A stretch of 64,000 nt of DNA from contig JBNRSN020000001.1 of the NCBI GenBank assembly GCA_051313645.2, positions 156,922,001-156,986,000 of the forward strand. The letters are read 5' to 3'. The first letter of the stretch is position 1, and every line of letters starts with the position of its first letter. A program made the position numbers and the translations under genes. Origin of the DNA: Centroscyllium fabricii (taxonomy: Eukaryota). Of the stretch, positions 6,853 to 64,000 are shown in pieces. The notes under the pieces were generated by a model. The model did not search any database and was not told the origin of the DNA. It saw nothing but the letters and a program-made list of their open reading frames with translations.

Positions 6853-7104
6853 GGCTTTTAATAACTTACTTTGGAGCTACCCTCCGAACGAACATCAGAA
6901 CAGAATGAGGGAGCCTCGGTCAGTCCGCACCTATAAAGGCCTCACCTGGGGGAGGGGTTAGAGGTGTGGCTGACCTGGCTCCACGACAGTATTACAGCAG
7001 TATTACAGGGCTGTGTATCACACACAGCCAATTGTTGGCAACAATAATTCAGTGGTACATATACATATTATGGGTTACCACAGACAGTAACACAATTCAC
7101 TATG

Positions 7105-13109: not shown

Positions 13110-16100
13110 TGTGGTAAACCACTGTTTATATATGTTTGTACCTGTATACATTGTGTGTGTGACCTCCATTGTTTGTACATAGTCTTTCATGTATAGCTTC
13201 TCCGGGCATGCCCGTGCTGACCCCGACTGTGGCTCCTCCTCCCCGGACCCAGGTATAAAGGCGACTGTCTCCCTCCCCCAATCATTCTGGGATCAGTCGA
13301 CTAGCATGGGCATGCTCATGTCTTAGTGAATAAAAGCCTTTAGTTCACTCCTCAACTTCTCGTCTCTGAAGTTATTGAAAAGGCATCAATTTTATTCACT
13401 AAGTTTGCATCATGGAGCAAATGCTGAAACCTGCGACGTTAGAACTAGATCCCCAAGCGCCAGGTGCCTCTAACACTTTTACGCACTGGTTCTCCTGCTT
13501 TGAGGCATACCTCGAAGCCTCCGCCGCGATCGTCCAGGTGGACCGGGACAAACTGCGCCTCCTCAATGCCCGGGTGGGCCCTCAGGTGTACTCGATCATC
13601 GCGGACGCTACGTCCTACACCGAGGCGGTCAGAATCTTGGAGGCCGAATACACCCGGGCACCTAACGTGGTCTACGCCAGACACCTCCTGGTCACCCGAA
13701 AGCAGCAACCCGGGGAATCGAGCGTGGAGTTCCTGCGAGCGCTGAGAGTCCTCTGCCGGGCCTGCAATTGCAGAGCACAGACGGCCGTTGTGCACGCTGA
13801 AAATCTCATCAGGGACGCCTACATCGCCGGCCTCAGGTCAGACTATATCAGGCAGAGACTGTTGGAAAAGGATGGCCTGGACCTGCAGGCGACGGTAGAG
13901 CTTGCGAACTCACTGGACCTGGCGTCCCATAATATGGCCGCCTACAACTCTGACCACGCGGGCACATCGCGGACGCTGCCATCTTGGACGCAGCTGGCCA
14001 CATCGCGACCCGTGGACGAGCTGACAGCGGCGACAACCTCGAAAGGCCCGAAATGTTATTTCTGCGGCCAGGCCCAGCACCCCAGACGGAATTGCCCGGC
14101 AAGGGACGCGACCTGTTCCAAGTGCGGGAAGAAGGGCCACTACGCCAAGGTATGCAGAGCGGCAGCGCAATCGACCCCTAAACCCAGCAGCGCCGCATGT
14201 GGCCCGTGGCGTCAGCCATCTTGGACACAGCCGGCAGCACCATCTTGCACACAGCCCGCCGCGTGGGCGCCCGCGCCATCTTGGACCCAGCCCGCCGCGC
14301 CATCTTGGACACAGCCCGCCGCGTGGGGGCAGCCATCTTGGGACCAGGCCCCAGACCCCTCCACCGACCCGACGGACCCGATCCTGGCCTCAATCACCCT
14401 CGACCAAGACAAGAGTCAACCGCTTAGCAAGTCGATGCAAGCAGGTGAATGGCCGAACTACGGACTGCCTTTTCGACAGCGGGAGTACGGCAAGCGTTGT
14501 ACACCCAGATACGCTTCTCCCTGAGGGTAACACCGGCAAGCAAAAAAATCTCTATGACTTCGAGGTCCGAATCAGCGGACGTCTGCGGTCGCTGCGTAGT
14601 GACCCTGACAGTGCGGGGTGTACACTTCCAAAATTTTAAGCTATTCGTGCTGCTGCAGCTCTGCGCTCCCCTACTGCTGGGCCTTGATTTCCAATGCCAC
14701 CTCCAGAGCATGACAATGGCGTACGGTGGGCCTCTTCCCCTGCTCACGGTCAGCAACCAGCACTTCGCACAGTGCCCACAGCACACTACCTGTGGCCTCT
14801 CGACCCTTAAGATCGCCCCTCCCTCACTCTTCGCCAACCTCACCCTGGACTGCAAGCCCGTCGCCACCAAGAGTAGGCGCTACAGTACCGGGGACAGAGA
14901 TTTTATCAAGTCGGAGGTGAAACGGCTTCTGAGGGAAGGGGTCATCGAGGCTAGTAATAGCCCCAGGAGAGCCCAGGTAGTGGTTGTAAAGACCGGAACC
15001 AAGCACCGAATGGTCATTGACTACAGTCAGACCATTAATCGGTTTACACAACTGGACGCGTAACCCCTCCCCCGCATAGCGGACATGGTGAACCAGATCG
15101 CGCAGTATCGGGTCTTCTCAACCATCGATTTAAAATCGGCGTATCACCAGCTCCCCATCCGCCCAGAGGACCGCCACTATACTGCCTTCGAGGCAGACGG
15201 CCGCCTCTATCACTTCCTTAGGGTTCCATTTGGTGTCACTAACGGGGTCTCAGTCTTCCAAAGGGAGATGGACTGAATGGTGGATCAGTACGGACTGCGG
15301 GCCACTTTCCCGTATCTGGATAATGTCACCATCTGCGGCCACGATCAGCAGGACCATGACACCAACCTCCAGAAATTTCTCCACACCGCCAAAACCCTGA
15401 ACCTGACCTATAACACGGAGAAATGTGTGTTCAGGACAACCCGCCTCACCATCCTCGGCTGTGTTGTGGAGAATGGGGTCATCGGTCCCGACCCGGACCG
15501 CATGCGCCCCCTCCTGGAGCTCCCCTTACCCCACTGCCTCAAGGCCCTGAAAAGGTGCCTGGGGTTCTTTTCCTATTATGCCCAGTGGGTCCCCAACTAC
15601 GCGGACAAAGCCCGCCCACTCATTAAATCGACCTCTTTTCCCCTGTCGGCAGAGGCCCGCATGGCCTTCAGCGGCATCAAACAGGACATCGCAAAGGCCG
15701 CGATGCACGCAGTGGACGAATCCATCCCGTTCCAGGTGGAGAGCGATGCGTCCGACTTCGCCCTGGCCGCCACCCTTAACCAGGCGGGCAGACCCGTGGC
15801 CTTCTCGCGCACCCTCCAGGGCCCCGAGACCCGACACTCTTCCGTTGAGAAGGAGGCCCAGGCCATTGTTGAAGCAGTGCGACACTGGAAGCACTACCTG
15901 GCCGGCAAACGATTTACCCTGCTGACTGACCAACGCTCAGTCGCTTTTATGTTCAACAACAAAGAGCGGGGCAAAATCAAGAACGACAAGAAATTGAGGT
16001 GGAGAATCGAACTCTCCGCCTTCAATTATGATATCTTGTACCGGCCTGGGAAATTCAATGAGCCCCCAGATGCCCTGTCCCGCGGTACATGTGCCAGCGC

Positions 16101-17619
16101 ACAAGTAGACCTTCTCCAGACCCTGCACAACGACCTCTGTCACCCGGGGGTCACCAGGTTTGTTCATTTTATTAAGTCCCACAACCTCCCTTACTCCATC
16201 GAGGAGGTCAGGTCCATGACCAAGAACTGCCAGGTCTGTGCAGAGTGCAAGCCGCACTTCTTTCGGCCGGACTGGGCACACCTGATCAAGGCCACCCGCC
16301 CCTTTGAGCGACTCAGCATCGATTTTAAAGGGCCCCTCCCCTCCTCTAACCGCAACGTGTACTTCCTCAATGTCATTGACGAGTACTCACGTTTCCCCTT
16401 TCGCCATCCCCTGCCCAGACATGACCTCCACGGTCATCAGGGCACTGCACAGCATCCCTGTTCGGGTACCCCAGCTACATCCATAGCGACCGGGGTGCCT
16501 CTTTTATGAGTGACGAGCTGCGTCAGTTTCTGCTCGCCAAGTGCATCGCCACGAGCAGGACTACCAGCTATAACCCCCGGGGGAACGGACAGGTGGAGAG
16601 GGAGAACGCCACCATCTGGAAGGCCACCCTATTAGCCCTGCGGTCTAAGGGCCTCCCAGTCTCCCGCTGGCAGGACGTCCTCCCCGAAGCGCTCCACTCC
16701 ATTCGGTCACTTTTATGTATGGCCACTAACGCCACCCCTCACGAGCGACTTTTTGCCTTCCCCAGGAAGTCGGCTTCAGGGACCTCGCTGCCATCTTGGC
16801 TATCGTCCCCGGGACCCGTCCTGCTCCGGAAACACGTGAGGGGCCATAAGTCGGACCCCCAGGTCGAATGGGTCCATCTCCTCCACGCCAACCCCCAGTA
16901 TGCCTACGTGGCGTACCCTGATGGGTGGGAGGACACGGTGTCCATCAAGGACCTGGCACCCTCGGGTGCCCCCGAGACCACCACGACCCACCAGCCCGCA
17001 CCCCACCCCCCCGCCGCCACCCTCCTGGCACCAGCACCACGGTACGTCATACCCCTCAAGGCACCAGCACCACGGTACGCCCACCCAGCACCTACAGGCA
17101 GCACGGTATGGCCCCCAAACCTACGCACCCGCCGGCCGGACGACAAGTGGGAGAGCGCGCCAGTGACCGTCACCGTAAGGGGCCCCGCATCGGAGCAAGC
17201 ACCGCCGCCGATTCCGCCGCCGCTGACTCCGCCGCCAACTGTACGCCGCTCTACAAGGCAGACCAAACCGCCCGAGAGACTGAACCTTTGATGGTTGCCC
17301 AACATCACACCGCCGGACTTTATTTTAAACAAGGGGTGAATGTGGTAAACCACTGTTTATATATGTTTGTACCTGTATGCATTGTGTGTGTGACCTCCAT
17401 TGTTTGTACATAGTCTTCCATGTATAGCTTGTCCGGGCATGCCCGTGCTGACCCCGCCTGTGGCTCCTCCTCCCCGGACCCAGGTATAAAGGCGACTGTC
17501 TCCCTCCCCCAATCATTCTGGGATCAGTCGACTAGCATGGGCATGCTCATGTCATAGTGAATAAAAGCCTTTAGTTCACTCCTCAACTTCTCGTCTCTGA
17601 AGTTATTGATAAGGCATCA
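13110..17619 (+). mobile_element. Full-length Ty3/Gypsy element B (Mag-like)
   Basis: 279-bp LTRs at 13110-13388 and 17341-17619 with about 6 mismatches. TSD CTCAC. PPT AAGGGGTGAA. Confidence 0.95.
13412..17291 (+). pseudogene. gag-pol of element B, frameshifted and with stops
   Basis: Gag with CYFCGQAQHPRRNCPARDATCSKCGKKGHYAKVC; LFDSGS; YLDN; RNase H and integrase split over several ORFs. Confidence 0.92.
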
Positions 17620-25614: not shown

Positions 25615-27254
25615 TGTGGTAAACCACTATGTATATATTTGTATCATATCCATGGCCTGTAGTATTGTGTATACAGTTCTCTGTGTACTGCTTGTCTGGG
25701 CATGCCCGTGCTGACTCCACCTGTGACTCCTCCTCCCAGGACAGGTATAAAGGTAACTGTCTCCCTCCCCCCGATCATTCCGGGAGCAGTCGACTAGCTG
25801 GGGCATGCCCAACCTTTAGCGAATAAAAGCCTTTATTCACCACGTAACTTCTCGTTTCTGAGGTTATTGATAAGGTATCAATTTTATAAGCTAAATTTAA
25901 TCATGGAGACCATGCTAAAACCAGCGATGTTAGAACTGGATCCCCAAACACCAGGCGCCTCTAACACGTTTACGCACTGGTTCAACTGCTTCGAGGCATA
26001 CCTCGAAGCCACCGCGGCGATCGTCCAGACGGAAAGGGACAAGCTGCGCCTTCTCAACGCCCGGGTGGGCCCCCAGGTGTACTCAATAATCGCAGACGCT
26101 ACGTCCTACACTGAGGTGGTCCGAATCCTGAAGGCCGAGTATACCCGGGCACCGAACATCATCCACGCCAGACACCTTCTGGCCACCAGAAAGCAACAAC
26201 CCGGGGAATCGAGCGTGGAGTTCCTACGAGCACTGAGAGTCCTCTGCCGGGCCTGCAACTGTAAGTCACAGTCAGCCTTGGTGCACTCTGAAAGCCTCAT
26301 CAGGGACGCTTATGTCACTGGCCTCAGGTCCAATTACATTCGCCAGAGACTGTTGGAGCAGAATGGCATGGACCTGCAGGCGACAATCGAACTTGGGAAT
26401 GCGCTGGACTTGGCGTCCCATAATATGGCCGCTTACTCGGCCGACCACGCGGGCCATAAGTCTGACCCCCTGGTCGAACGGGTCCACCTGCACGCCAACC
26501 CCCAGTACGCCTACGTGGCGTACCCTGACAGGAGGGAGGATACGGTGTCCATCAAGGACCTGGCACCCTCGGGTGCCCCCGAGACCAGTACGACCCATCA
26601 GCCCGCAGCCCCCCCCCCCCTGCATACCACCACCTTTGGGGCACCAGCACCACGGTATGTCATACCCCTCGAGGCGCCGGCACCAGCACCACGTTACGCC
26701 CACCCAGCACCTGCAGGCAGCACGGTATGGCCCCCTAACCTACGCACCTGCCAGCCGGATGACGAATGGGAGAGCGCGCCAGTGATTGTTACCGCAAGGG
26801 GCCCCGCATCGGATCAAACGCTCTCACCGACCCCGCCGTCGCCGACTCCACCGCCAACGGTGCGCCCGCCGACTCCACCGCCAGCGGTGCGCCGCTCGAC
26901 AAGGCAGACCAGGCCGCCCGACAGACTTAACATTTAACGACTGCAAAGCATTCGCCCCGCCGGACTTTATTTTTTAACAAGGGGTGAATGTGGTAAACCA
27001 CTATGTATATATTTGTATCATATCCATGGCCTGTAGTATTGTGTATATAGTTCTCTGTGTACTGTTTATCTGGGCATGTCCGTGCTGACTCCGCCTGTGA
27101 CTCCTCCTCCCAGGACAGGTATAAAGGTAACTGTCTCCCTCCCCCCGATCATTCCGGGAGCAGTCGACTAGCTGGGGCATGCCCAAGCTTTAGCGAATAA
27201 AAGCCTTTATTCACCACGTAACTTCTCGTTTCTGAGGTTATTGATAAGGTATCA
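25615..27254 (+). mobile_element. Miniature 1.64-kb non-autonomous Gypsy element C (B-related)
   Basis: 266-bp LTRs at 25615-25880 and 26989-27254, TSD CTGGT, PPT present. Protease, RT, RNase H and the integrase core are absent. Confidence 0.95.
25903..26937 (+). CDS. Open 344-aa fusion ORF: Gag N-terminal domain plus integrase C-terminus and Pro-rich tail
   Basis: METMLKPAMLELDP..HNMAAYSADHA joined to GHKSDPLVERVHLHANPQYAYV..VRRSTRQTRPPDRLNI*, with no stops. Confidence 0.75.
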   Translation: METMLKPAMLELDPQTPGASNTFTHWFNCFEAYLEATAAIVQTERDKLRLLNARVGPQVYSIIADATSYTEVVRILKAEYTRAPNIIHARHLLATRKQQPGESSVEFLRALRVLCRACNCKSQSALVHSESLIRDAYVTGLRSNYIRQRLLEQNGMDLQATIELGNALDLASHNMAAYSADHAGHKSDPLVERVHLHANPQYAYVAYPDRREDTVSIKDLAPSGAPETSTTHQPAAPPPLHTTTFGAPAPRYVIPLEAPAPAPRYAHPAPAGSTVWPPNLRTCQPDDEWESAPVIVTARGPASDQTLSPTPPSPTPPPTVRPPTPPPAVRRSTRQTRPPDRLNI

Positions 27255-37436: not shown

Positions 37437-40400
37437 TGATGCATGATCAATCACAATGAGTCGACGGGATTAAGTAATTGAGGCTTTAATTAACTAAGAA
37501 CAGAAGTACAGGTCTTATCGCTCTCTGGTCCTGGAATGCCATGAGGTAAACATGGCTGCCACCTTTATACTACAGTCTGTGGGTGGAGCCCGGAGGCGGA
37601 GCCGGCTGAGGCATCCCAGGTAGATACCGGTGGGGACAAAAGAGGTAACAAGGACATAACTATATACAGCACAGTAAGTAACAAGGAGATAACTATATAC
37701 AGCACAGTATTAGTGGGAAACAGTATTACTGGTTTACCACATTCACCCCTCGTTTTAAGATTGAGTCTGGCTGGGTGAAGTGGTTCTGCCGGGGGCAGAA
37801 TAAGAAAGTTTATCGGAGGGTCTGGTCTCCCTCCGCGACCGGTGCAGCCCTGGCTGCAGTGCGGGATCCTCGGGCAAGGTGGTCCTCATCGTCGGAGGTG
37901 ACGCAACAGTCACCTGGAGGTCGTGCATCATCGGATCCCGGGTTGCTGGCGTACCGTCTACAGGGGCTAGAGAAAAAGAGGGTAACAAAGGTGCGTCGAG
38001 AGTTATGGTGGGGGGGTGGAAAATGGTGGTCTCAGGGGCGCCCGAGGGCGCAAGGTCTCTAATGGAGACCGTGTCCTCCCGCCCGTCTGGGAACGCCACG
38101 TAGGCGTATTGGGGGTTGGCGTGGAGGAGCTATACCCTTTCGACCAGGGGGTCCGTCTTATGGCCCCTCACATGCTTCCGAAGTAGGATGGTCCCTGGTG
38201 ACGTCAGCCACGATGGTAGCGAGGTCCCCGAGGTGGACTTCCTAGGGAAGGAAAACCTCTTGTGAGGGGTAGCATTGGTCGCAGTGCAGAGCAGTGACCG
38301 AATGGAGTGGAGTGCATCAGGGAGGACCTCCTGCCAGCGGGAGATTGGGAGGCCCCTAGACCGCAGGGCTAGAAGAGCGGCCTTCCAGACCGTCCCATTC
38401 TCCCTCTCAACCTGTCCATTCCCCCGGGGGTTGCAGCTGTTGGTCCTGCTCGTTGCAACTCCTTTTGCGAGCAGGTACTGGCGCAGCTCGTCACTCAAAC
38501 GAGGAACCCTGGTCACTATGTATGTAGTTGGGGAGGCCGAACATGGTGAAAATGCTGTGCAGGCACTTGATGACCGTGGCTGCGGTCATGTCGGGGCTAG
38601 GGATGGCGAAGTGGAAACGTGAGTACTCATCAATGATGGTAAGAAAGTACACGTTGCGGTAGGAGGAGGGGAGGGGCCCTTTGAAGTCGGCACTCAGGCG
38701 CTCAAAAGGGTGGGTGGCCTTTACCAGGTTAGCTTTGTTTGGCCTGTAGAAGTGCGGTTTGCACTCAGCGCAGATCGGGCAGCTCCTGGTAACGGCCCGG
38801 ACTTCCGCAACGGAGTAAGGCAGGTTGCGGGATTTGACAAAATGGAAAAGACAGGTAACTCCCGGGTGGCAGAGGTTGTTGTGGAGAGAATGCAAACTAT
38901 CCACTTGTGCGCTGGCACAGGTTCCACGAGATAGAGCATCCGGGGGCTCATTGAGTTTGCCGGGCCGGTACAAGATGTCATAATTGTAGGTGGACAGCTC
39001 AAACCTCCACCTCAGGATCTTGTCGTTTTTGATCTTGCCCCGCTGTTTATTATTAAACATAAAAGCCACTGAACGCTGGTCAGTGAGCAGGGTGAATCTT
39101 CTACCGGCCAGGTAATGCCTCCAGTGCCGCACCGCTTCCACGATGGCCTGGGCTTCTTTTTCCACCGAGGAGTGTCTGATTTCACGGCCTTGGAGGGTAC
39201 GGGAAAAGAAGGCCACTGGTCTCCCCGCCTGATTGAGGGTAGCGGCCAGAGCAAAAAGTCAGAGGCATCGCTTTCCACCTGGAACGGGGTGGATTCATCC
39301 ACGGCATGCATGGTCGCCTTCGCGATGTCGGACTTGATGCGCTCAAAGGCTACGCGAGCCTCGTCCACCAGGGGGAAAGAGGTGGATTTGATGCTTTGTC
39401 AGCGTAAATAGGGACCCACTGGGCGCAGTATGAGAAAAAGCCCAGGCACCTCTTCAGGGACTTGAGACTGTGGGGGAGGGGGAGTTCCATGTGGGGGCAC
39501 ATGCGTTCGGGGTCAGGACCGATGATCCCATTTTCCATGACACATCCCAGGATGGCGAGCCGGGTGGTGCGGAAAATGCATTTCTGCTTGTTGTACGTGA
39601 GATTAAGGATTTGGACGTCATGGCCGCAGACGGTGATATTATCCAAGTTGGGGAACGTAGCCAGCAGCCCGTTTTGGTTCACCATACGGTCCATCTCCCG
39701 TTGGAAGACTGATACACCGTTGGTGACGCCGAAGGGGACCCTGAGGAAATGGTAAAGACGGCCGTTCGCCTCAAAGGCGGTGTACTGGCGGTCTTCGGGG
39801 CGGATGGGGAGCTGGTGGTATGCAGACTTTAAGTCGATCGTGGAGAACGCCCGGTACTGCGCAATCTGGTTGACCATGTCAGAAATGCGAAGTAGGGGTT
39901 ATGCGTCCAGCTGTGTAAAACGGTTTATGGTATGGGCTGTAGTCAATGACTAGGCGGTGTTTCTCGCCGGTCTTAACGACTATAACTTGGGCTCTCCAGG
40001 GGCAGTTGCTAGCCTCAATAACCCCCTTCCTCAGGAGTCGCTGAACCTCAGATTTAATAAAAAATCTATCCTCCATACTGTAGCGCCTGCTCTTAGTGGC
40101 TATGGGCTTGCAGTCTGGGGTGAGATTAGTGAACAGTGGAGGAGGGGCGACCTTGAGAGTCGAGAGGCTGCAAACAGTGCGTGGCTGGTGATTTGGAAAC
40201 TGCTGGCTACAAACAGTGAGGGGGGGAGCGGCCCACTGTACTTCATTGTGACACTGTCGAGGTGGCTCTGGAAGTCTAGCCCGAGCAGGATGGCAGCGCA
40301 GAGGTGAGGGAGGATAAAAAGTTTTAAATTGCTGCAGACTGTGCCCCGCACCGACAATGTAACGACGCAGTATCGCCGACATCCGCCCTTTGAGTTTTAG

Positions 40401-41826
40401 AGGCCAGGGAGGACTGGGAGTGAAAGCCTCCGCACTGTGTCCGGATGAATAAAGCTTTCGGTGCTCCCGGAGTCGAAAAGGCAGTATGTGATGTGGCCAT
40501 TTACCTGGATGTCCATCGTGGACCTGGCGAGCTGGTGAGGCCTGGATTGATCCAGGGTGATGGAGGCCAGTTGGGGCAGTAGCAGGTCGAAGTCCTCGGG
40601 TGTGGAAGCGGGGGAGGCGGGCGCGATCGGCGAGTTCAAAGATGGCGGCGCCCACGCATCGCACGCGGCCGGGAGAGATCCAAGATGGCCACCACTTGCT
40701 TCCCACGCGACTGGGTAAGATGGCCGCTCCAAGATGGCTGCTCTTCAGGGCCACACGCGGCGCTGCTGGGATTGGGAGAGGGTCTGGCCTTGCAGACACT
40801 GGCGTAGTGTCCCTTTTTCCTGCAGCTGGAGCACGTCGCATCTTTTGCCGGGCAGCACTGCCTGGAGTGCTTAGAGTCGCCACAGAAGTAGCACTTCTGT
40901 GCGCGGGACACCGCTGCAGCCGTTGGCCTAACATCCAAGATGGCTGCGCCCGTGCTGTCCACGAGGCTACCTGCTGATCGTAGGCCTCCATGTTTCTGTG
41001 CGCCACGTCCAGGGAGAGCGCGAGGGCTGCCGCTTTCTTCAGATCGAGGTCACTCTGTTCGAGTCGCCTCTGGCGGGTGTAGTTTGATTGTACACCCGCA
41101 CCGAGGGCATCGCAGATCAAGTCCTCCACGCAGGCCTGTGCCGTTACAGGCTTGCAGTTGCAGGCCCGCCCGAGCACTCACAGCGCCCGAAGGTAGTCCG
41201 CAACAGACTTACCGGTCTGTTGTTTTTGGCACAGTAGGAGGTACCTCGCGTATACTTCGTCAATCGGGGCCGCGAACTGGTCTTTCAGGGTATTCAGGGT
41301 GTTCTCGCCCTCAATCAAGGTGTAGATAGCCGGGCTTACCCGGGATTGCAGGACCGCCAATTTTCGTTCATTCGTGGTTACGGTTTCGCTGGAGGCCTCT
41401 AGGAAGAGTTCGAAACACTTGAGCCAGTGTGTGAATCTCCGCGGTGTGTCCGCCACCTGCGGATCTAACTCCAGGCGATCAGGTCTTAGAATCTTATCCA
41501 TCGCTAAACTTAGTTAATTAAATTGATGCACGATCAATCACAATGAGTCGACGATATTAAGTAATTGAGGCTTTAATTAACTAAGAACAGGAGTACAGGT
41601 ATTATCGCTATCTGGTCCTGGAATGCCATGAGGTCAACATGACTGCCACCTTTATACTACAGTCTGTGGGTGGAGCCCGGAGGCGGAGCCGGCTGAGGCA
41701 TTCCAGGTAGATACTGGTGGGGACAAGAGGTAACAAGGCGAAAACTATATACAGCACAGTAAGTAACAAGGAGATAACTATATGCAGCACAGTATTAGTG
41801 GGAAACAGTATTACTGGTTTACCACA
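37437..41826 (-). mobile_element. Full-length decayed Ty3/Gypsy element D (Mag-like)
   Basis: LTRs at 37437-37741 and 41524-41826, TSD CTCAT, 33-bp direct repeat inside the LTR. gag MDKILRPDRLELDP, double CCHC, FDSGS, NLDN and integrase, with many frameshifts. Confidence 0.93.
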
Positions 41827-44241: not shown

Positions 44242-47200
44242 TGTGGTAATCATGTATATAACCACTGTATATAGTTGCTGACTACCTGTGTAATACTGTA
44301 GGCTAGGACAGCCACACCCCTAACTCCTCCCCTCAGGTCGGAGTATATAGGCGAGTGCTGACCTGCCCCCACTCATTCTTCACCTTGACCTCATCAGGAG
44401 ACCAGCTCCATTCTTAGTTAATAAAAGCCTGTAGTTTAGGCAACTACTCGTCTTTGTGTGATTAATTGACGATACGTCAATTTTATTAACTAAATTTTTA
44501 AACGTGCAGAGCAATGCAGTGAAACCGGATCGCCTCGATGTCAATCCTCAGGCGCCCGAAGCTGCTAACGACTTTGAACACTGGTTTGGCCTGGTCGAGG
44601 CCTACATGAAGGCCGTAAAGGCAACGAGTGATGAGGACAAACTACAGGTACTCTCATCACGGATCAGCGGCCGGGTGTACTCCTTTATCAGAGGCCTCAA
44701 GACTTACGAGGAAGCGGTCAAGAAACTAAAGGACAGCTACATGCGCCCGATCCACTCAGTCTACGCCAGGCATGTACTGGTGACCAGAAGACAACGACTC
44801 GGTGAGTCTAATGAACAATACCTGCTTGCGCTCCAAGTCCTCGTACGGGCCTGCGACTGCAAGGCAAGGACAGCGGAGGAAGAGGCGAATCTTCTAGTCC
44901 ACGATGCCTACGTGGCAGGACTCAGGTCCAGCCAGGCCCGCCAGTGGCTGCTGGAGCAGGAGACACTGTCGCTCAAGTCCGCTGTAACTCTTTCGAATGC
45001 GGTGGACGGGGCGCTTAAGAAGATGGACGCATACAGGGATTACGACTCCCACGCAAGTACACCTGACCCTTGGGCGACAGAGACGGGCCGAGGCCCCCAC
45101 GATGGCAGCGGCGGCTGCGAAGGCGCCGATGGGGCACAGATGCTACTTCTGCGGCCAAGGAAAGCACCCACGGGTGCAGTGCCCCGTGAAGAATACGACC
45201 TGCGCGCGGTGCGCGAAGAAGGGGCACTACGCTAAGGCGTGAAAATCCAGCCCGGCCTCCACCTCCAGATCCAACAGCGCGGCCTGTGAGAGCAGCGAGG
45301 CCACTCCGTGGCTACAGGTACGGTGTTGCAGCGCGACCCAGCAGCGGTCAGCTGGGGGTAAATCCCGGGTGCCTCCATCCCCTTTAAATGTACGGCGGAG
45401 GCCTGCCGCGCGTGCGGCACAGGCGCCGCCATCCCAAATGCGACTGCGACCGGCCATGTGCGAACCCCCGGCGCCGCCATCTTGCCCAGTGGTCAACCGC
45501 GTGCGAACCACGGGCGCCGCCATCTTGTCCACAGCGGCCGGCCGCGTGCGAACCACGGGCGCCGCCATCTTGTCCACAGCGGTCAGCCGCGTGCGAACCA
45601 CGGGCACCGCCATCTTGTCCACAGCGGTCGGCCACGTGCGAACCACGGGCGCCACCATCTTGTCCACAGCGGCCAGCCGCGTGCGAACCACGGGCACCGC
45701 CATCTTGTTCACAGCAGCCAGCCGCGTGCGAACCACGGGCGCCGCCATCTTGTCCACAGCGCTCAGCCGCGTGCAAACCACGGGCGCCGCCATCTTGTTC
45801 ACAGCAGCCGGACACGTGCACATCGCCAGCGCCGCCATCTTCTGAGCGGCCATCTTGACAAACGCCCCGGCCGGGGCCCCCACACACACACATACACTTG
45901 GGCCTCAGCCACCGTCGATCAGGCTAGGCCGCACACCTTGTCCAACTCCATGATGGGGATAAAGGTGGACGGGCACGTCACCAACTGCCTGTTCGACACC
46001 AGTAGCACAGAGAGCTTCATACACCCCGACACAGTGCAGCGCTACGCACTACAGACCCAGCCCACGCACTACAAAATCTCCCTTGCCTCAAAGTCCCACA
46101 CGGCGGACATCACCGGCTACTGCAACGTCATGCTCACGATCAGGGACCGCATTTACCGCAACTTTAAGTTGTACGTACTCCACCAGCTGTGCGCCCCAGT
46201 ATTACTGGGACTGGATTTCCAATGTCACCTGAAGAGCGTGACGATGGATTTCGGTGGAACCCTGGCCCCCCTCACTGTTAGTAGCCGGGACAATCCCAAC
46301 TTAACGCGGAGCTCGACTTGCGGCCTGTCCACATTAAAAGTCGACCCCCCCTCTCGACCCCAAATGCAAGCCCATTGCTACCAAAAGGTCGGTGTTACAG
46401 TGCAGTGGACCGGGCGTTTATGAGGTTGGAGGTCGAGCACATGCTGAAAGAAGGGATCTTGAGGCCAGCACCAGCCCCTGGCGGGCCCAGGTCGTGGTGG
46501 TCAACAGGCGAGAAACTGCGCATGGTCATTGACTATAGCCAGACAATCAACCGCTACACCGGGCTTGACGCCTACCCCCTCCCCCGCATCTCGGATATGG
46601 TGAACCAGATCGCCCAGTACAAGGTCTTTTCCACAATCGACCTCAAGTCGGCGTATCACCAACTCCCCATCCGGAACTCCGACCACCGGTACACCGCCTT
46701 CGAGGCGAACGGCAGGCTTTACCACTTCCTCCGGGTCCCCTTCGGTGTCACCAACGGGGTGTCGGTGTTCCAGAGGGAGATGGACCGCATGGTTGACCAG
46801 AATGGGTTGCAGGCCACTTTCCCCTACCTGGACGACGTGACCATCTGCGGCCATGACCAGCAGGACCACGATGCCAACCTCGCCAAATTCCTGCACACGG
46901 CGAAACGGCTGGACCTAACATACAATAAAGACAAATGTGTCTTTAGTACGGACCGGCTCGCTATCCTCGGATACGTGGTGGAAAACGGGGTCCTTGGCCC
47001 AGATCCACAGCATATGCGCCCCTTGCAAGAGCTGCCCTTACCTCACAACCCCAAAGCCCTGAGGAGATGTCTAGTGTTCTTTTCTTATTACGCGCAATGG
47101 GTCCCCCAGTACGCGGAAAAGGCCAGACCTCTCCTCAAGGCTGGCGTCTTCCCCCTCTCGGCAGAAGCCCAAACGGCATTCGCTCGGATCAAGGAAGACA

Positions 47201-48087
47201 TCATCAAGGCGACCATGCACGCCGTTGATGAGTCCATCCCTTTCCAGGTGGAGAGTGACGCTTCGGACTTTGCCCTTGCCGCCACCCTGAACCAGGCACG
47301 CAGGCCCGTAGCGTTCTTCTCCCGGATCTTACAGGGATCCGAAACTCGCCACTCAGCGGTGGAAAAGGAGGCCAAGGCCATCGTGGAGGCAGTGCGCTAC
47401 TGGCGTCATTACCTGGCCGGTAAGCGTTTTACCCTGCTCACTGACCAACTGTCGGTGGCGTTTATGTTTAACAATAAACAACGGGGTAAAATCAAGAATG
47501 ATAATATCCTTCGGTGACGGATCGAACTCTCGACTTACGAGTCTGACATTCTTTACCGTCCAGGCAAGCTTAACGAACCCCCGGACGCACTGTCCAGGGG
47601 AACATGCGCCAGTACCCAGCTTGACCGGCTGAAGGCCCTCCACGATCGCCTCTGCCACCCGGGTGTCACCAGATTCGCCCACTTCGTCAAATCCCGTAGC
47701 CTCCCCTACTCCATCACGGAGATTAAGGCTATGACCAAAGAGTGCCCTGTCTGTGCCGAGTGCGAACCCCAATTCTACAGGTCAGACAGGACGCACGTCA
47801 TGAAGGCCACCCGCCCCTTTGAACGCCTGAGCGTGGACTTCAAAGGCCCCCTCCCCTCCACTGACGGCAACTCGTATTTCCTTACGGTCATAGATGAGTT
47901 CTCAGGCTTCCCCTTTGCCTTCCCCTGCCTAGATATGACGAGCGCAACGGTGATCAAACACTTCACCACGCTGTTCGCCATTTTCCGTCTCCCCAGCTAC
48001 ATCCATAGCGACCAGGGCTCGTCGTTCATGAGCGACGAACTGCGTCAGTTCCTGCTTCAGAAAGGGGTTGCCTCAAGCAGAACCTCA
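44242..48087 (+). mobile_element. 3'-truncated Ty3/Gypsy element F (A-related)
   Basis: 5' LTR at 44242-44479, then gag, 45-bp repeats, protease, RT (YLDD), RNase H and integrase up to GVASSRT. No 3' LTR. Confidence 0.92.
45455..45860 (+). repeat. 45-bp tandem array (about 9 units) carrying the GCCGCCATCTTG motif
   Basis: CATCTT recurs at 45478, 45521, 45566, 45611, 45656, 45701, 45746, 45791, 45836 and 45851. Confidence 0.92.
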
Positions 48088-55299: not shown

Positions 55300-55828
55300 T
55301 GTGGTAACCGTATTGTATAAGCTTACCACTGCAATATTGTCACACTGTTTTACAACACTGTCGTGGAGCCAGGTCAGCCACACCTCTAACTCCTCCCCCA
55401 GGTGAGGCCCTTTATAGGTGGGGACTGACCAGGCTCCCTCATTCTGTTCTGGATGTTCGTTCGGAGTGTAGCTCCAAAGTTAGTTAATAAAAGCCTGTAG
55501 TTTAAGGTCACTACTCGTCGAAGTCTTTTATTAAGAGAATTGACGATACTGTGGCGACACGCCCACCGGCAGCCACGAACCCGCGCTGGGAAGGCTGCAA
55601 AGCGGCCCCGCCCGTCGGAGGACGCACGGACTTCCCCGACGTGATGACGTCACCAGGTGGCCAGCCGGCAGTGACGTCCCCAACCGCGGGACCTTTAAAT
55701 ACCTGAGCGCCAGGTGGCTCAGCCTCTTCTCTCCACCTGGCCCTAGTTGTAACAAGTAGTATAATAAAAACTCTCCTTCTAACCTCTCTGTGTCCAGCGT
55801 GGTCCTTCAGCCTTGCAGGCCTCAACAC

Positions 55829-55840
55829 TGGTGACCCCGA
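55829..55840 (+). promoter_or_regulatory. tRNA-Trp primer-binding site of G
   Basis: TGGTGACCCCGA one nt after the 5' LTR, complementary to the tRNA-Trp 3' end as in CsRn1-clade elements. Confidence 0.88.
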
Positions 55841-55923
55841 TACCTGAGACGATTCTCAGGTGAACAATGAAGCAGCCACTGCAGGACTGAGGGCCAAGCT
55901 GCCGCAGCCGAATCGCTACCACC

Positions 55924-58900
55924 ATGCCAGCAGCAAACGACTCAGCACGCCAAAGCAGACGGGGCCAAGTTTACCTCCCGGTCCCAACCATACCACAATT
56001 CTGGGAGCTCCGTCCAGCGGCTTGGTTTCGCAACACCGAGAACACCTTCCGCATCCATGGCGTGCAGGGAGACGACCGCTACAGCCTGCTCTTCGCAGCC
56101 CTCGCACAGTCCACCATCGACAGAATGTGGGACACCATCGAGGAAGACACTTCTGCTGGCAGGTACGAATCGCTAAAGGCCGCGCTGCTCGCAAAATTTA
56201 CCCCAACCATTTTCGAGCGCGATTGCCAGGTCATTAACCTCCCCGACCTGGGAGATGCAGACCCCACCGACTTGTGGGCCCAGTTTGAGGCGCTCAATCG
56301 CGACTCGGACACCCTTAAGCGCGCCCTCTACCTCCTTAAGCTGCCGCCCTCCATCAGACCGACACTGACGGTCTTGGAGCACCTCTCAAACAGGCAGCTA
56401 GCTCAGGAGGCAGACAAGCTCATTAAGGCCGAGCGCACCCGCGCCACCATGCACCGCCACGCTGCCGCTCAACAAGAGCAGCACCACCCACAACCCCGGC
56501 CCCAACTCAGAGCCGCGCGGACCCACAAAAAGCCACGCACCGCGGCAACCGGCTGGTGCTACTACCATACCAGGTTTGAGGCCAAAGCGCAGCGCTGCGT
56601 TCCGCCCTGCAACTTCAAACCCCAAACCTGCCCCAGCCCCACCATGTGCGTCGGCCGCTCCGGAGCGCTGCTCTTCGTTAAAGACAGTGTCTCAGGCCTC
56701 CGTTTCCTCTGCGACACAGGCGCGCAGCACAGCATCGTGCCAGCCTCCCCCGCAGAATCCAAGCAGGGCACCCAAGGCCCACCACTCGAAGCCGCAAACG
56801 GCTCCGAGATACTCACGTTCGGTACCCGCCAGCTTACCATTAAACTAGCAGGCCACAGGTATACGTGGGACTTCATCACCGCGCAGGTTAACATGCCCCT
56901 ACTCGGAGCCGATTTTCTGTGCGCCCACGGGCTCCTTGTCGATGTTACCCGGCGCCGCCTGGTCGACATCCAAATCATGTCGACCATTCCGTGCTCCACA
57001 GCCCCAGCACACCAGACCCACGCGGCAGCTCACTGCCGGGCCCGCAACTCCGACACGTACGCCACGCTGCTCGCCGAGTTCCCCACCCTAACCAACCCCA
57101 CCTTCACAGCCCGCTCCGCCAAGCACGGCGTAGAGCACCACATCACCACCACAGGCCCCCCGGTCCACGCCCACGCACGCAGGCTGGACCCGGCCAAGCT
57201 AGAGATCGCTCGAGCCGAGTTCCACATCATGGAACAGCTCGGCATCATCCGCCGCTCCAGCAGCCCCTGGGCCTCCCCCCTCCACATTGCCCCCAAACCC
57301 GATGGCGGCTGGCGCCCCTGCGGAGACTACCGCCGCCTCAACAACGCCACCACCCCGGATAGGTACCCAGTCCCCCACATCCAGGATTTTTCCGTGAGGC
57401 TAGCCGGCTGCACGGTCTTTTCAAAGATCGACCTCGTGCGGGGCTACCACCAAGTTCCAGTGCACCCGGCGGATGTCCCTAAGACAGCCGTCATCACCCC
57501 ATTCGGCCTATTCGAATTTCTCCGGATGCCCTTCGGACTCAAAAACGCGGCCCAGGCTTTCCAGCGCCTCATGGACTCAGTCCTCCGGGACCTCCAGTTC
57601 ACATTCGTCTATCTTGACGACATCCTGGTGGCCAGCGCCTCCCCCCGGGAACACCTCATCCACCTCAGAACCCTTTTTAAAAGCCTGGCCGAGCACGGCC
57701 TCATATTAAGCCCCTCCAAGTGCCGATTCGGCCTCGAGGCTATTGACTTCCTCGGCCACCACATCTCCCACACCGGGGCCATACCCCTGCCCTCCAAGGT
57801 GCAGGCGGTCCAGGAATTCCCCCGCCCGCACTCCATCATGGGGCTGCAGGAATTCCTTGGAATGGTTAATTTTTACAACCGTTTCATCCCCGGCGCAGCC
57901 GCCCTCATGGCCCCCCTCTACCAGGCCACCCACGGGCAATCCAACAAGACCGCGGTCGAGTGGACGGCCGAAGCCGCCACCGCTTTCACCGCAACCAAAA
58001 CAGCCCTTGCCAAAGCCACCCTCCTCAGCCACCCCAGGCCCAACGCCAGAGTAGCCCTCACCACCGACGCCTCCGACCACGCTGTCGGAGCAGTCTTCGA
58101 GCAGTGGTCGGGCGACTCATGGCAACCACTGGCCTTTTTCAGCCGCCGCCTCCGGCCCCCAGAGGTCAAGTACAGCGCCTTCGATAGGGAGCTACTCGCT
58201 CGCTACCTCGCAGTGCGCCACTTCCGCTTCCTTTTGGAGGGCCGCCACTTTACAGCATTTGTGGACCACAAACCACTAGTCTCCGCAATGGCTAAGCTCT
58301 CCGAACCCTGGTCGGCCAGGCAGCAGCACCAGCTCGCAGCCGTGTCCGAGTTCACGACCGACATCCAGCACATTGCCGGCCGCGACAACGTGGTCGCCGA
58401 CTGCCTCTCACGACCCGCCATTCACAAGCCCAACCCCGACCACCCCCCAACCCCAGCCACCAACCGCGCCTGCGCACACTGCTGCGCATTCCCAACCACC
58501 AACACTGTCCAGACCGCGGTCGACTACGTCAAAATGGCGGCCGACCAACTCAGCGATCCCGACCTCCTCGACCCCACCAACAAACTTCCCGGCCTACTCT
58601 TAGCCACCGTAGCACACGGACCCACAGCCACGGGGGTCCGCTGCGACGTCACCCTGCCCCAACCCAGGCCCGTGGTGCCCCCCGCGTGGAGGCAGCACAT
58701 CTTCCAGACCCTCCACGGCCTCTCCCACCCCGGCGTCCGCGCATCCACCAAGCTCATCTCTGCGCGATTCGTTTGGCGCGGCCTAAAACAAGATGTCCGC
58801 GCCTGGACCACCTCGTGCAATGCCTGCCAGCGAGCCAAGGTGCACAAACACATCAAAGCACCACTCCAACCAATCGTCATCCCAGCCAGACGCTTCAGCC

Positions 58901-59814
58901 ACGTGCACATCGACCTGGTTGGACCACTACCCCCATCACGTGGACACTCGTACCTCCTCACAATGGTCGACCGCACCACCCGCTGGCCTGAAGCGGTCCC
59001 CCTCAACACGACCACCACCGCCGAACTGGCCAGGGCCTTCATCGCCACCTGGGTCGCCTGCTTCGGCGTCCCCAACGACATTACTTCAGACAGGGGCCCC
59101 CAATTCACTTCAACTCTATGGTCAACCATCGCTCACGACCTTGGGGTAACCCTGCACCGAACCACTGCCTACCACCCGCAAGCCAACGGCCTCTGAGAAC
59201 GGTTCCACCGAACTTTTAAAACATCCCTGCGGGCCAGCCTCCAGGACGCAACCTGGACGGACCGCCTGCCCTGGGTAATGCTCGGCCTCCGCTCAGCGGC
59301 CAAAGAAGATCTACACGCCTCGGCAGCCGAACTCGTTTACGGCCAACCACTAACGGTACCAGGCGAGTTCGTCGCAGAAACAAGCGAACCCTGGTCGGCC
59401 GAGCGCTGCCTCAGGGAATTCAACAACCAGGCAGCAGAATTCAAACCACTTCCGGTGGCCCGCCACGGTCACCCGGCGACACGTGTCCCCGATGCCATTC
59501 AGGATGCCAAGTACGTGTTTGTCCGCCATGACTCACACAAAACACCGCTGCAGGCACCGTACGACGGGCCATTCAGAGTGCTTCGGGCGGGACCCAAAAC
59601 GTTTGACATTCAAATGGGCAACATAACTGAGACCGTATCCATTGACCGGCTCAAACCAGCACACGTAATGGCGGGCGAGACAACAGTCCCCGCACAACCA
59701 CCTAAACGCGGCCGCCCTACCGTACCAAAACCCGCCCACACTCCCACACAGACCAACAAGCAACACATCACACGTGCCGGCCGTACCATCAGGCCACCTA
59801 AGCGCCTCGCCTGA
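55924..59814 (+). CDS. gag-pol of G, single frame with one in-frame TGA (59194-59196) in integrase
   Basis: CHCC knuckle CYYHTRFEAKAQRCVPPC; LCDTGA; YLDD; TDASD; HGLSH..CNAC; NGL*ERFHR; PYDGPF. Confidence 0.9.
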
Positions 59815-62800
59815 GGCGACACGGGCAGAGCATAGACGGCCCGCCACAACACCATCTTTCGAACCACGGAACAGCACACAACACCTGCCGGCCACAACAC
59901 CAGGCCATTGCGGCAAACTGTCGGACATTCTGTGTGTAATCGAAATGTGTGTCTGCTCTCCTTTTTGTCTCCCTCTCCTCTAGGAAACTACACTTCCCCT
60001 CGCGGATTCTGGGGGGGAGCTGTGTGGCGACACGCCCACCGGCAGCCACGAACCCGCGCTGGGAAGGCTGCAAAGCGGCCCCGCCCGTCGGAGGACGCAC
60101 GGACTTCCCCGACGTGATGACGTCACCAGGTGGCCAGCCGGCAGTGACGTCCCCAACCGCGGGACCTTTAAATACCTGAGCGCCAGGTGGCTCAGCCTCT
60201 TCTCTCCACCTGGCCCTAGTTGTAACAAGTAGTATAATAAAAACTCTCCTTCTAACCTCTCTGTGTCCAGCGTGGTCCTTCAGCCTTGCAGGCCTCAACA
60301 ATACGTCAATTTTATTAACTAAGAAAATTTGAAATGGAGAGCGGTGCGGTAAAGCCAGAAAAGCTGGACACCAGTCCACAGGACCCAGCCGCCGCCACCA
60401 CGTTCGAACACTGGTTCGGTCTCCTGGAGGCCTATATGGACGCCGCCAAGGCTACAACTGACGGGAACAAGTTGCAAGTTCTCAGGTCTAGGATCTCCAG
60501 CCGAGTATTCTCCCTCATCCGAGATGCCAAAACCTACCCAGTGGCAGTGGAAAAGCTGAGGAAATGCTACGAGCGCCCGGTCCATTCGGTCTACGCCAGA
60601 CATGTGCTCGCGACCAGACCACAACTACCGGGTGAGACAAACGAACAATTTGAGCAAGCACCCCAGGCCCTGGTACGGGTCTGTGGCTGCCAACCACGGA
60701 CAGCAGAGGAGGAGGCGAATCTCCTCGTCTGTGATGCCTACGTAACAGGCCTAAGGTGCGTTGAAGCCCGCCAGCGGCTGCTGGAGAAAGACTCTCTGAC
60801 TTTAGAAGAGGCGATTTCTATATCGAACTCTGTAGAAGGGGCACGCAACAAGCTGCAGGCGTACAGTGGCACAAACCCGCAGGCCTACGACATGTGGGCC
60901 GCGCCACAACGGGCCCAGGCCTGGGCAGCACCACAACGGGTCGAGACCCCCACGATGGCTGCGACAGCTGCAAAGGCAGACAAACGGTGCTACTTCTGCT
61001 GCCAGGGACTGCACCCACGAGCGAGATGCCCAGCGAGGACCGCGACCTGAGAGAGGTGCTCCAAAAAGGGACACTACGCGAAGGCCTGTAGATCAGCACC
61101 AGCAGCGCCCAACTCCAGGTACAACAGCGCAGCCTGTGAAAGCTCCGCCAGGACTCAGGTAAGCTGCAATAGCAGCGCGATCCAGCGACGGTCCGGGGGT
61201 AGAAGAAAAGCGCCCCCATCTCCCACCCTGATGCGGCAAAGGCCGGCTGCACCCACGGCACGCCAAGCTCAGCCACGGCCGGCCATGCGCGACCCCCCAA
61301 CGCCAGCAGCAGCACACCCAGCACGGCCCGCTGCGTGCGAACCACGGGCACCGCCAACCCAGCCACCGCGGCCCACTGCATGCGAACCACGGGCACCGCC
61401 AACGCGCTCACAGCGGTCAGCCGCGTGCGAACCACGGGCGCCGCCATCTTGTCTCCAGCGGCCCACCATGTGCGACCCCTTGGCGCCGCCATCTTGTCTC
61501 CAGCGGCCCGCCATGTGCGACCCCCCCAGCGCCGCCATCTTGTCTCCAGCGCGCCGCCATGTGCGAGCCATGGGCGCCGCCATCTTGTGTACAGCCCCAA
61601 CCAGCAGGGGGCCCCCACACACAAAGACACACTTCGGCCTCAGCCATACCTAAAGTGGACCAGGCTAGGCCACACAACCTATCAAACCCGATCAAAATCA
61701 ACGGCCACGTTACTAATTGCCTGTTCGACACTGGAAGCACAGAGAGCTTTGTTCACCCTGATACAGCGCAGCGCTACGGACTGCAGATCCTGCCCACGCG
61801 CTACCAAGTCTCCCTTGCTTCACAGTCCCACACCGCGGACGTCACCGGCTACTGCTCCGTCACGCTCACAGTCAAGGGTTGTGTGTACCGTAACTTTAAG
61901 TTGTACACCCTCAAGCAGTTGTGTGCCCCAGCCTTACTAGGTCTGGATTTCCAGTGCCACCTCAAGAGCGTGACAATGGAGTTCGGCGGGACCTTGCCCC
62001 CCCCCTCACCGTCAGTAGCCGGGACAGTCCCTTCCCAAAGCGGAGCCCAGCCTGCGGCCTCTCCACCCTGAAAATCGACCCCCTCTCACTGTTCGCCAAC
62101 CTCGACCCCAACTGCAAACCTATTGCTACTAAGAGTCGGCGGTACAGTGTGGGGGATCGCACGTTTATCAGGTCGGAGGTCGGGCGTATGCTGAAGGAGG
62201 GGATAATTGAAGCCAGCACCAGCCCCTGGCGGGCCCAGGTAGTAGTGGTGAAGACTGGCGAGAAACAGCGGCTGGTTATCGACTACAGCCAGACCATTAA
62301 CCGCTACACCGGGCTCGACGCCTACCCCCTTCCCCGCATCTCGGACATGGTCAACCAGATCGCCCAATATAAGGTGTTCTCCACGATCGACCTTAAGTCG
62401 GCGTATCACCAACTCCCGATCCGGAAAGCCGACCGCCCGTACACCGCCTTCGAGGTAATCGGTCGGCTCTACCACTTCCTCCGGGTCCCCTTCGGCGTGA
62501 CCAACGGAGTGTCAGTGTTCCAACGGGAGATGGACCGCATGGTTGACCAGAACGAGTTGCGGGCCACCTTCCCTTACCTGGACAATGTGACCATCTGCGG
62601 CCATGACCAGCAGGACCACGATGCCAATCTGGCCAAATTCCTTGATACGGCGGAAAAGCTGGACCTTACGTATAACAAGGACAAATGTGTGTTTAATACA
62701 GACCGGCTCGCCATCCTCGGATACGTGGTGGAGAACGGGGTCCTCGGCCCCGACCCACAGCGTATGCGCCCCCTACAAGAACTGCCCCTACCTCACAACC

Positions 62801-64000
62801 CCAAAGCCTTGAGGAGATGCCTAGGATTTTTCTCCCACTACGCACAATGGGTCCCACAGTTCGCGGACAAGGCTAGACCACTCCTCAAGGCTGCCGTCAT
62901 CCCCCTCTCGGTAGAAGCCCAAACGGCATTCGCCCGGATAAAGGAAGACATCATCAAAGCGACCATGCACGCTGTTGATGAATCCATTCCCTTCCAGGTG
63001 GAGAGCGACGCTTCGGACTTTGCCCTTGCTGCCACCCTGAATCAGGCAGGCAGGCCCGTAGCGTTTTTCTCCCGCACCCTACAGGGACCCGAAACTCGCC
63101 ACTCTGCAGTGGAAAAGGAGGCCCAGGCCATCGTGGAGGCTGTGCGCTACTGGCGTCATTACCTGGCCGGTAAGCGTTTTACCCTTCTCACCGACCAGCG
63201 GTCGGTGGCGTTTATGTTTAATAATAAACAGAAGGGTAAGATCAAGAATGATAAGATCCTGCGGTGGCGGATCGAACTCTCGACTTACGAGTACGACATT
63301 CTTTACCGACCAGGTTAACTCAATGAACCCCCGGACGCACTGTCCAGGGGAACGTGCGCCAGTGCCCAGCTAGACCGGCTGAAGGATCTCCACGACCGCC
63401 TTTGCCACCCGGGTGTCACCAGACTCGCCCACTTTGTTAGATCCCGTAGCCTCCCCTACTCCATCACGGAGATCAAGGCTATGACCCGAGAGTGCCCTGT
63501 TTGCGCCGAGTGCAAACCCCAATTTTTCCGGCCAGACACGGTGCACCTCATTAAGGCCACCCGCCCCTTTGAACGTCTAAGCATGGACTTCAAAGGCCCC
63601 CTCCCCACCACCGACCGCAACTCATACTTCCTCACGGTCGTAGATGAGTTCTCCCGCTTCCCCTTCGCTTTCCCCTGCTCAGATATGACGAGCGCAACAG
63701 TGATGAAACACTTCACCACACTGTTCGCCATTTTTGGTCTCCCCAGCTACATCCATAGCGACCGGGGGTCATCGTTCATGAGCGATGAACTGCGCCAGTT
63801 TCTGCTCCTGAAAGGGGTTGCCACGAGCAGAACGACCAGTTATAACCCCCGGGGGAACGGCCAGGTAGAAAGGGAGAATGGGATCATCTGGAAGGCGGTC
63901 ACCCTGGCTCTGAAGTCCAGAGGCTTTCCAGTGGCCCATTGGCAGGCAGTCCTCCCAGACGCGCTGCTTTCAATACGCTCTCTCCTGTGTACGGCCACTA

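Follow-up and report, generated by a model that had tools for sequence, protein, structure and literature searches.

The window

The 64,000-nucleotide (nt) stretch of Centroscyllium fabricii DNA considered here (contig JBNRSN020000001.1 of assembly GCA_051313645.2, positions 156,922,001 to 156,986,000; hereafter the window) is a nest of eukaryotic transposons, among which self-comparison picks out six related long terminal repeat (LTR) elements, A to F. Their LTRs, of 238-305 base pairs (bp), begin with TG and end with CA, 5-bp target duplications flank A to D (the copies with both ends present), a polypurine tract (PPT), GGGTGAA, precedes the 3' LTRs, and matches to Pfam profiles, including those for RNase H, give the domain order protease (PR), reverse transcriptase (RT), RNase H, integrase (IN). 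They are Ty3/gypsy (Metaviridae) LTR retrotransposons. The named proteins most similar to theirs are from rays (65-79% identity), followed by those of corals, nematodes, spiders, sea slugs, flukes and crustaceans, which by itself would point to a cartilaginous fish as the probable host. Our subject is the junction of R, U5 and primer-binding site (PBS) in copy F, at 44414-44493, which comprises the last 66 bases of the 5' LTR (ending at 44479) and the 14 bases beyond. A first-pass annotation had seen there a multi-branched fold of tRNA size; as set out below, we think that its closing stem is the duplex from which the element probably primes its own reverse transcription. The features of copy F are as follows.

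44242..44479, forward strand: 5' LTR of copy F, TG...CA, recognised by homology to the other LTRs
44344..44379, forward strand: TATA box at 44344, with an initiator-like TCATTC; transcription predicted to begin at A 44375, the arm following 39 nt later
44397..44409, forward strand: short hairpin GGAG/CTCC in R, immediately preceding the arm; seen in A, E and F, with weaker equivalents in B, C and D
44414..44426, forward strand: arm, the putative self-primer and 5' strand of the closing stem P1; contains the poly(A) hexamer AATAAA (44420-44425)
44427..44441, forward strand: P2 hairpin GCCTG/TAGGC, abutting the arm; pairing probability (P) 0.97-0.98 in F
44448..44460, forward strand: TCGT and the GU-rich tract that follows it, 22 nt after the arm
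44464-44471 / 44475-44482, forward strand: U5 inverted-repeat hairpin straddling the LTR end; lineage-specific
44481..44493, forward strand: non-tRNA PBS, 3' strand of P1, at +2 to +14 after the LTR
44494..48083, forward strand: broken gag-PR-RT-RNase H-IN region, cut off by another element near 48085

The closing stem and its covariation

The closing stem referred to in the first-pass annotation is real at the level of sequence. In copy F, 44414-44426 and 44481-44493 form 13 Watson-Crick pairs out of 13, as do the equivalent segments of A, B, D and E, while those of C form 11 of 13. The coordinates in the other copies, and that of the element nested in copy E, are given here (descending numbers denote the reverse strand).

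1980..7082, reverse strand: copy A; 5' LTR 7082-6547, 3' LTR 2266-1980, 5-bp target duplication
6868-6856 (arm) and 6545-6533 (PBS), reverse strand: junction of copy A, with a solo LTR of another family inserted at 6852-6608
13110..17619, forward strand: copy B; arm 13323-13335, LTR end 13388, PBS 13390-13403
25615..27254, forward strand: copy C, internally deleted; arm 25816-25828, LTR end 25880
25882-25894, forward strand: PBS of copy C, with two mismatches
37437..41826, reverse strand: copy D; arm 41584-41572, LTR end 41524, PBS 41522-41509
55300..64000, forward strand: copy E, extending past the window edge; arm 55480-55492, LTR end 60308, PBS 60310-60322
55550-60300, forward strand: nested element inside the U5 hairpin loop of copy E

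Relatives were sought in one scan of a bacterial genome collection, which yielded seven loci, six of them eukaryote-like contigs within genome bins. A 5' LTR junction is present in L001, L002, L004 and L007, representing three lineages (L002, L004 and L006 belong to a single family and count as a single lineage); L003 and L006 have a 3' LTR only, and L005 (270 nt) has no LTR. The RT of the relatives is 53-60% identical in DNA sequence to that of the window copies, L007 being compared through gag (43-48%); copy C, which is deleted, was omitted from the RT tree, and the fragmentary L007 was placed in the gag tree only. As L001-L004, L006 and L007 are animal-type retrotransposons, accompanied by microsatellites, in bacterial bins, they are probably eukaryotic contamination.

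In all ten elements with a 5' junction (the six copies and four relatives) the register is constant: the CA of the LTR is followed by one unpaired A and then by the duplex. P1 therefore appears as a 13-14-bp duplex between an LTR arm and the bases from +2 after the 5' LTR, the position of the usual tRNA site, and it has a sharp 5' boundary at 13-14 bp in eight of the ten. A TGG tRNA site was found after the 5' LTR in none of the six window copies and none of the four relatives. Conversely, the element nested in copy E, used as a control, has a TGG site and lacks any self-match of arm and PBS (best 9/14), and the bases following four 3' LTRs match the arm at only 4-5 of 14 positions. The only other 13/13 fold-back at the P1 spacing in the window is unrelated: a perfect inverted repeat, 18 bp or longer, at 24740-24820.

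In all four relatives an arm ending in AATAAA or ATTAAA leads into GCCT (GTCT in the 5' LTR of L007); after the terminal CA of the LTR come a single A and then the arm's complement, P1 pairing at 14/14 in L001, L004 and L007 and at 12/14 in L002. Over the ten elements 133 of 140 cells of the alignment pair, and nine of 14 columns contain two types of pair. Each PBS tracks the arm of its own element: when arms and PBSs were permuted, none of 100,000 reassignments reached the observed pairing, and in a version with seven lineages only the true assignment, among 5040, did so. On this comparative evidence the closing stem is the deeply conserved part of the junction.

Three side observations concern these ends. 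GGGTGAA is invariant before the 3' LTR in A-D, L001-L004 and L006, mirroring the invariant single A after the 5' LTR, and the two bear on the number of bases trimmed by integrase. Another, incomplete copy of the arm, about 28 nt further upstream in L004 (3119-3125) and equivalently in L002, is predicted by folding to compete with the arm for the PBS; this may be a switch or an artefact. The contig of L001 is terminally redundant (1-145 and 3805-3949), with a single LTR, a PPT before it and a PBS after it, and is either a one-LTR circle or a collapsed assembly.

Inside the stem

The interior of the stem is another matter. The segment 44405-44500 of copy F does fold better than shuffled sequence (z = -3.68; one of 200 shuffles as good), but the single multi-branched fold that had been supposed common to all copies dissolves on comparison, the middle segment alone folding no better than shuffles in any of the six (17-300 of 300 as good; the best is B, with 17). 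The LTR-end hairpins listed in the first-pass annotation can be found in F, A, C, D and the 3' LTR of B; that of E exists only across the 4.75-kb nested element (55550-60300). Against shuffles the hairpin is exceptional in F (8 bp, 0/400) and unusual in A (7 bp, P = 0.0025) and C (7 bp, P = 0.015), marginal in D (6 bp, P = 0.055) and not above chance in B (5 bp, P = 0.135). It dominates the ensemble only in F (P 0.81) and A (P 0.55); enforcing it costs 6.4, 3.3 and 5.0 kcal/mol in B, C and D, respectively, where its 5' arm is recruited by a long irregular helix. Its supposed co-variation amounts to one double change, separating A, E and F from B, C and D, and one extra pair in C, which falls short of strong covariation. 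In the four distant lineages no more than 3 bp could be formed at the LTR end (4/4), and, on these comparisons, the U5 hairpin is confined to the window's lineage.

The second hairpin that had been described is not homologous between copies. In A, E and F it comes before TCGT, in B and C it has TCGT within it, and D has none; in F, GCCTG/TAGGC prevails over it (P 0.97). This last helix, P2, was not named in the first-pass annotation. A partner AGGY for the GCCT beside the arm is present in seven or six of eight lineages (P 5.5e-5 or less), and, judged by sequence, GCCT/AGGY is the inner helix that has been retained. When more copies were compared, then, neither the U5 hairpin nor the second hairpin proved to be conserved.

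TCGT is indeed present in all six 5' LTRs, as had been noted, and is the sole 4-mer common to the middle segments of all six elements (A being read from its 3' LTR). It occurs in nine of the ten window LTRs, having been lost from the 3' LTR of D. Its sharing nonetheless does not exceed chance expectation: for three lineages, 13% of shuffles yield an in-register 4-mer common to all. It is found in one of the four distant lineages. We rejected it as a pairing element, for the copies provide no partner in common: in the folds of A and E it pairs with ACGA, and those of B, C and D leave it in a loop. The small R-region hairpin was likewise considered, as a plus-strand stop, and has P 0.9-0.98 in A, E and F, but shuffles do equally well, and it is a lead only.

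Promoter and poly(A) signals

In all ten window LTRs a TATA-like box and a CATTY initiator are spaced 30-32 nt apart, and the arm starts 38-40 nt after the initiator. Among 108 TATA-like sites, this pairing occurs at those ten and at none of the other 98, for a motif that was itself defined on these LTRs. A poly(A) hexamer lies within the arm in all ten window LTRs and in eight of nine LTR copies from the relatives, and substitutions in the window arms interchange AATAAA and ATTAAA. In fold computations, opening the hexamer of the 5' LTR took 0.5 to 8 kcal/mol more than opening its 3' counterpart, in seven of seven pairs. A GT-rich stretch after AATAAA is described as general in the LTRs of animal Metaviridae (PMC3601003). 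TCGT stands 18-25 nt after the arm and ahead of a GU-rich tract; because this is where such an element would be expected (PMC3601003), TCGT and the tract are probably, as judged from their position, the downstream element of the poly(A) signal.

A proposed mechanism of self-priming

It seems to us that these Ty3/gypsy elements prime their own reverse transcription without tRNA, that the closing stem is their duplex of primer and PBS, and that it also hides the 5' poly(A) signal; we put the probability of this at about 0.6. The conserved TATA-initiator pair points to an RNA that would start about 39 nt before the arm. The 13-14-nt arm, as the covarying sequence suggests, would then fold back onto the bases that follow the 5' LTR, beginning at +2. 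With the AATAAA or ATTAAA hexamer inside the arm, this duplex would conceal the poly(A) signal of the 5' LTR, while the 3' LTR copy, having no partner, would remain open, as the computed folds predict. The RNase H of the RT may cut at the 3' edge of the duplex, where the sequence places the start of the GCCT/AGGY helix. We infer this step by analogy with Tf1, whose RNA pairs with its PBS through the first 11 bases and is cleaved by RNase H between the eleventh and the twelfth (PMC7175516), and the same analogy would put the cut site at the P1/P2 junction, after 44426 or 1-2 nt earlier. With a start 39 nt upstream, the product would be a capped primer of about 50 nt, held only by its last 13-14 bases, whose 3' OH would start minus-strand DNA one or a few bases outside the CA of the LTR. 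Such a long primer need not block plus-strand transfer, because Ty3 discards its primer copy by re-priming (PMC5371799). The polymerase and RNase H sites of Ty3 are about 13 bp apart (PMC5371799), a distance that fits the length of the duplex, although this is suggestive only. The U5 hairpin would be a lineage-specific accessory, comparable to the U5-IR (inverted repeat) stem, and TCGT with its GU-rich tract would serve 3'-end processing.

Several observations weigh against this proposal. The whole mechanism (RNA ends, cleavage and primer) is inferred, and the Tf1 primer is the 5' end of the RNA, whereas the start predicted here is 38-40 nt upstream. In the segments folded, the predictions do not favour P1 in L004 (P 0.01) or L002 (P 0.31), and the difference in opening energy between the 5' and 3' hexamers is just 0.5 kcal/mol in L002. 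P2 is thermodynamically favoured in five of the ten elements (F, B, C, E and L001); its partner is absent in A and D and sited differently in B and C, and its changes are mainly one-sided. The third duplex of the Tf1 pretzel, between U5 and leader, was not above shuffles in any of the six copies (77-225 of 300 as good). The distant lineages with a PBS number three, every one of them from contigs in bacterial genome bins, and a one-base shift in register underlies part of the column covariation between window and relatives.

Alternative explanations

The idea from which the work started, that this is a structured priming element with a cut that releases the primer, survives in part, supported by the absence of a TGG site and the covariation of the closing stem; what does not survive is the tRNA mimicry. 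In its full form the latter supposes that RT recognises the 80-nt fold, or that RNase P, RNase Z or the RNA itself cleaves it, TCGT serving as the motif for recognition or for catalysis. A span of about 80 nt in four of the six window copies, the multi-branched fold of F and TCGT in all six 5' LTRs speak for it. Yet the span, supposedly that of a tRNA, ranges over 75-88 nt among the window copies and measures 79, 67 and 52 nt in relatives, hence 52 to 88 nt overall; in L007 the stem encloses no more than 23 nt. The inner helices lack homology, and TCGT is in just one of the four distant lineages. ARAGORN found no tRNA in the window, and none in the six copies at -ps95, -ps80 or even -ps70; its mitochondrial mode gave several scattered calls per sequence, on both strands, none of those listed spanning the closing stem. 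A T-loop motif (TTCRA) is absent from all six, and Rfam had nothing at gathering level, its only matches being three on the minus strand at E 2-9. The relatives largely refute the mimicry, which we regard as very improbable. If the duplex instead worked just as in Tf1, with a replicating RNA starting at the first base of the arm and its first 13-14 nt as primer (PMC10085805), the sharp 5' boundary of the duplex in eight of ten elements would be explained, as would the frequent opening of the arm with an initiator-like TTAGT. Such a start would match the Tf1 scheme. Against it, the first bases of the arm show no conserved initiator, A, C, L001 and L007 being different, and the TATA-CATTY pair, at its canonical spacing in every window LTR, lies about 70 nt before the arm; such a start is, in our opinion, unlikely.

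Two further possibilities each carry long odds. One is a primer acting in trans: a short R transcript terminated at the poly(A) site of the 5' LTR, or else the genome's own 3' R end, might be trimmed to the arm and anneal to the PBS, so that RNase H would not have to cut an RNA duplex. This would account for the coincidence of the primer's 3' end with the poly(A) hexamer in all lineages, and for the retention of about 39 nt of R upstream as homology for strand transfer, of which a cut in cis would leave only the bases from GCCT to the poly(A) site (L007 has 23 nt to the LTR end). However, by prediction the duplex in cis should prevail and cover the 5' signal, exact trimming by some further nuclease would be required, and the literature searched offered no precedent. 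The other is that the duplex acts only as a mask, like the HIV-1 poly(A) hairpin, with priming by another RNA. The hexamer in the arm and its reduced accessibility at the 5' LTR in all seven pairs are in keeping with this, as is the need of retroviruses to suppress their 5' site (PMC3694450). Masking does not require, though, that the partner start exactly at +2 after the LTR in ten of ten elements; there is no TGG site; and a PBS that follows the arm of its own element is incompatible with a fixed host primer.

Relation to known elements

The self-priming proposed here finds its closest parallel in the Tf1/sushi chromoviruses (Tf1, Tf2, Tj1, sushi and Tcn1), which also lack a tRNA site, have an LTR segment complementary to the bases just past the 5' LTR and carry a second stem at the LTR end, a feature present here in the window's lineage only (PMC10085805, PMC7175516, PMC4600332). 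In our elements a chromodomain is absent: the integrase tails of A and B gave no Chromo match at E up to 5, and PF00385 was found in 0 of 120 listed full-length relatives. The RT appears to be far from that of Ty3 (161 bits for RT-RNase H against Ty3, where the nested, unrelated element scores 285), and has a one-residue insertion relative to Ty3, a motif found in 118 of the 120 relatives listed; both would place it away from the branch of Ty3. Gag has two CCHC knuckles, two tandem CCHC-like motifs being found in 113 of those 120. The duplex has 13-14 bp rather than the 11 of Tf1, and the predicted start lies 38-40 nt upstream of the primer rather than at it. Unlike the Tf1 pretzel (PMC10085805), the present junction yielded no third duplex, and its LTR-end stem comes to no more than 3 bp in the four distant lineages. 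The putative primer of our family carries the poly(A) hexamer. In its presumed working the duplex resembles that of Tf1/sushi, but the family fails to join that group on both chromodomain and pretzel.

The hairpin at the LTR end resembles the U5-IR stem-loop of Rous sarcoma virus and Tf1 in being a short U5 inverted repeat whose 3' arm reaches the LTR end beside the PBS. It differs in being restricted to one lineage, in its 3-7-nt loop, in being disfavoured in B, C and D and in overlapping the first two pairs of P1. Beyond the chromoviruses, self-priming has been predicted for the plant TAR-lineage copia elements on the strength of at least 10 bp of complementarity between LTR and PBS (PMC6317226), but these have the copia domain order and plant hosts, ours being Ty3/gypsy elements of animals. 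Unconventional priming without a TGG PBS has been proposed for fungal GalEa elements with their Conserved Hairpin Site, Dictyostelium Skipper with its polypyrimidine site and bivalve TRIMs with inner hairpins (PMC5445492, PMC5006619, PMC6934838); as these sources describe them, GalEa and Skipper have no LTR complement and the TRIM hairpins are in the inner domain, in contrast to the perfect and covarying LTR complement found here. The concealment of AAUAAA in the 5' LTR recalls the HIV-1 poly(A) hairpin and the U1-mediated suppression of foamy viruses (PMC3694450). In our elements, unlike those retroviruses, the masking strand is the PBS itself, and because it lies outside the LTR the masking would be specific to the 5' end.

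No named clade emerged from Pfam, from the Atlas (Gag-like clusters only) or from comparisons with the PDB, and a matching RT motif was absent from the supplement files searched of PMC6238403 and PMC8556966. In size (4.4-4.9 kb), LTR length (about 200-300 bp), want of a chromodomain and wide animal range, the family is like the Mag, Cigr-1 and MolGy clades. Mag and Cigr-1 also share its two-knuckle Gag, and we treat a Mag- or Cigr-1-like placement as a lead rather than a result. The size of Mag is given in PMC11117352. Membership of the Saci2 or CsRN1 group was considered and rejected, because Saci2 makes a 4-bp target duplication and has a tRNA PBS (PMC12471100), while the present elements have 5-bp duplications and no tRNA site; it is the nested elements that fit that group.

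Other features of the window

The nested element at 55550-60300 (forward strand) is a young, CsRN1-like element with 278-bp LTRs that are 100% identical, a TGG tRNA-type PBS, a DUF7041 Gag and an open frame of 1100 amino acids, which is broken by a stop at 59196. Two independent CsRN1/Saci2-like insertions with 4-bp duplications, this one and that at 6608-6852, have hit the priming structures of 5' LTRs, at the U5 hairpin loop in E and at the junction of arm and GCCT in A. With five or six such elements in the window, the chance of both falling there, estimated post hoc, is about 4e-4 to 1.6e-3, and there may be a target preference. Between the Gag zinc knuckles and the protease are 45-bp (15-codon) tandem repeats (A 5258-5617, F 45400-45914, E 61234-61595), whose copy number varies among A, F and E. 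Elsewhere there are three copies, 91-94% identical, of a repeat of about 390 bp without LTR ends (18827-19208, 22475-22874 and 28883-29278), which we take to resemble a short interspersed nuclear element; an array of 8/16-bp tandem repeats (49752-50002); and, just upstream of copy F, a fragment of a DDE_Tnp_4 (Harbinger-type) transposase (42935-43708).

Significance

Self-priming has until now been demonstrated for Tf1, assigned to its chromovirus relatives and predicted for one lineage of plant copia elements. The literature searched, which did not extend to the text of Repbase or GyDB, contained no report of it in an animal Ty3/gypsy element that is not a chromovirus. Some Gypsy entries in Repbase mention self-priming, which could lower the novelty of the present case. 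The hosts of the lineage, as represented among the named protein matches, include rays, corals, nematodes, crustaceans, spiders, molluscs and flukes, and one may tentatively imagine that priming without tRNA arose in a large animal lineage of Ty3/gypsy elements separately from Tf1/sushi, with an internal primer that is also its poly(A) signal. A single 13-14-bp switch might then both decide read-through of the 5' LTR and license reverse transcription, possibly with the participation of the host's 3'-end machinery. Both the predicted cut site and the predicted start site are testable to the single base. If the idea is true, tRNA-free priming would have had another origin, in a separate and widespread animal lineage, the problem of distinguishing the 5' from the 3' poly(A) site would have a clean answer, and there would be a class of elements beyond the reach of silencing by 3'-tRNA fragments.

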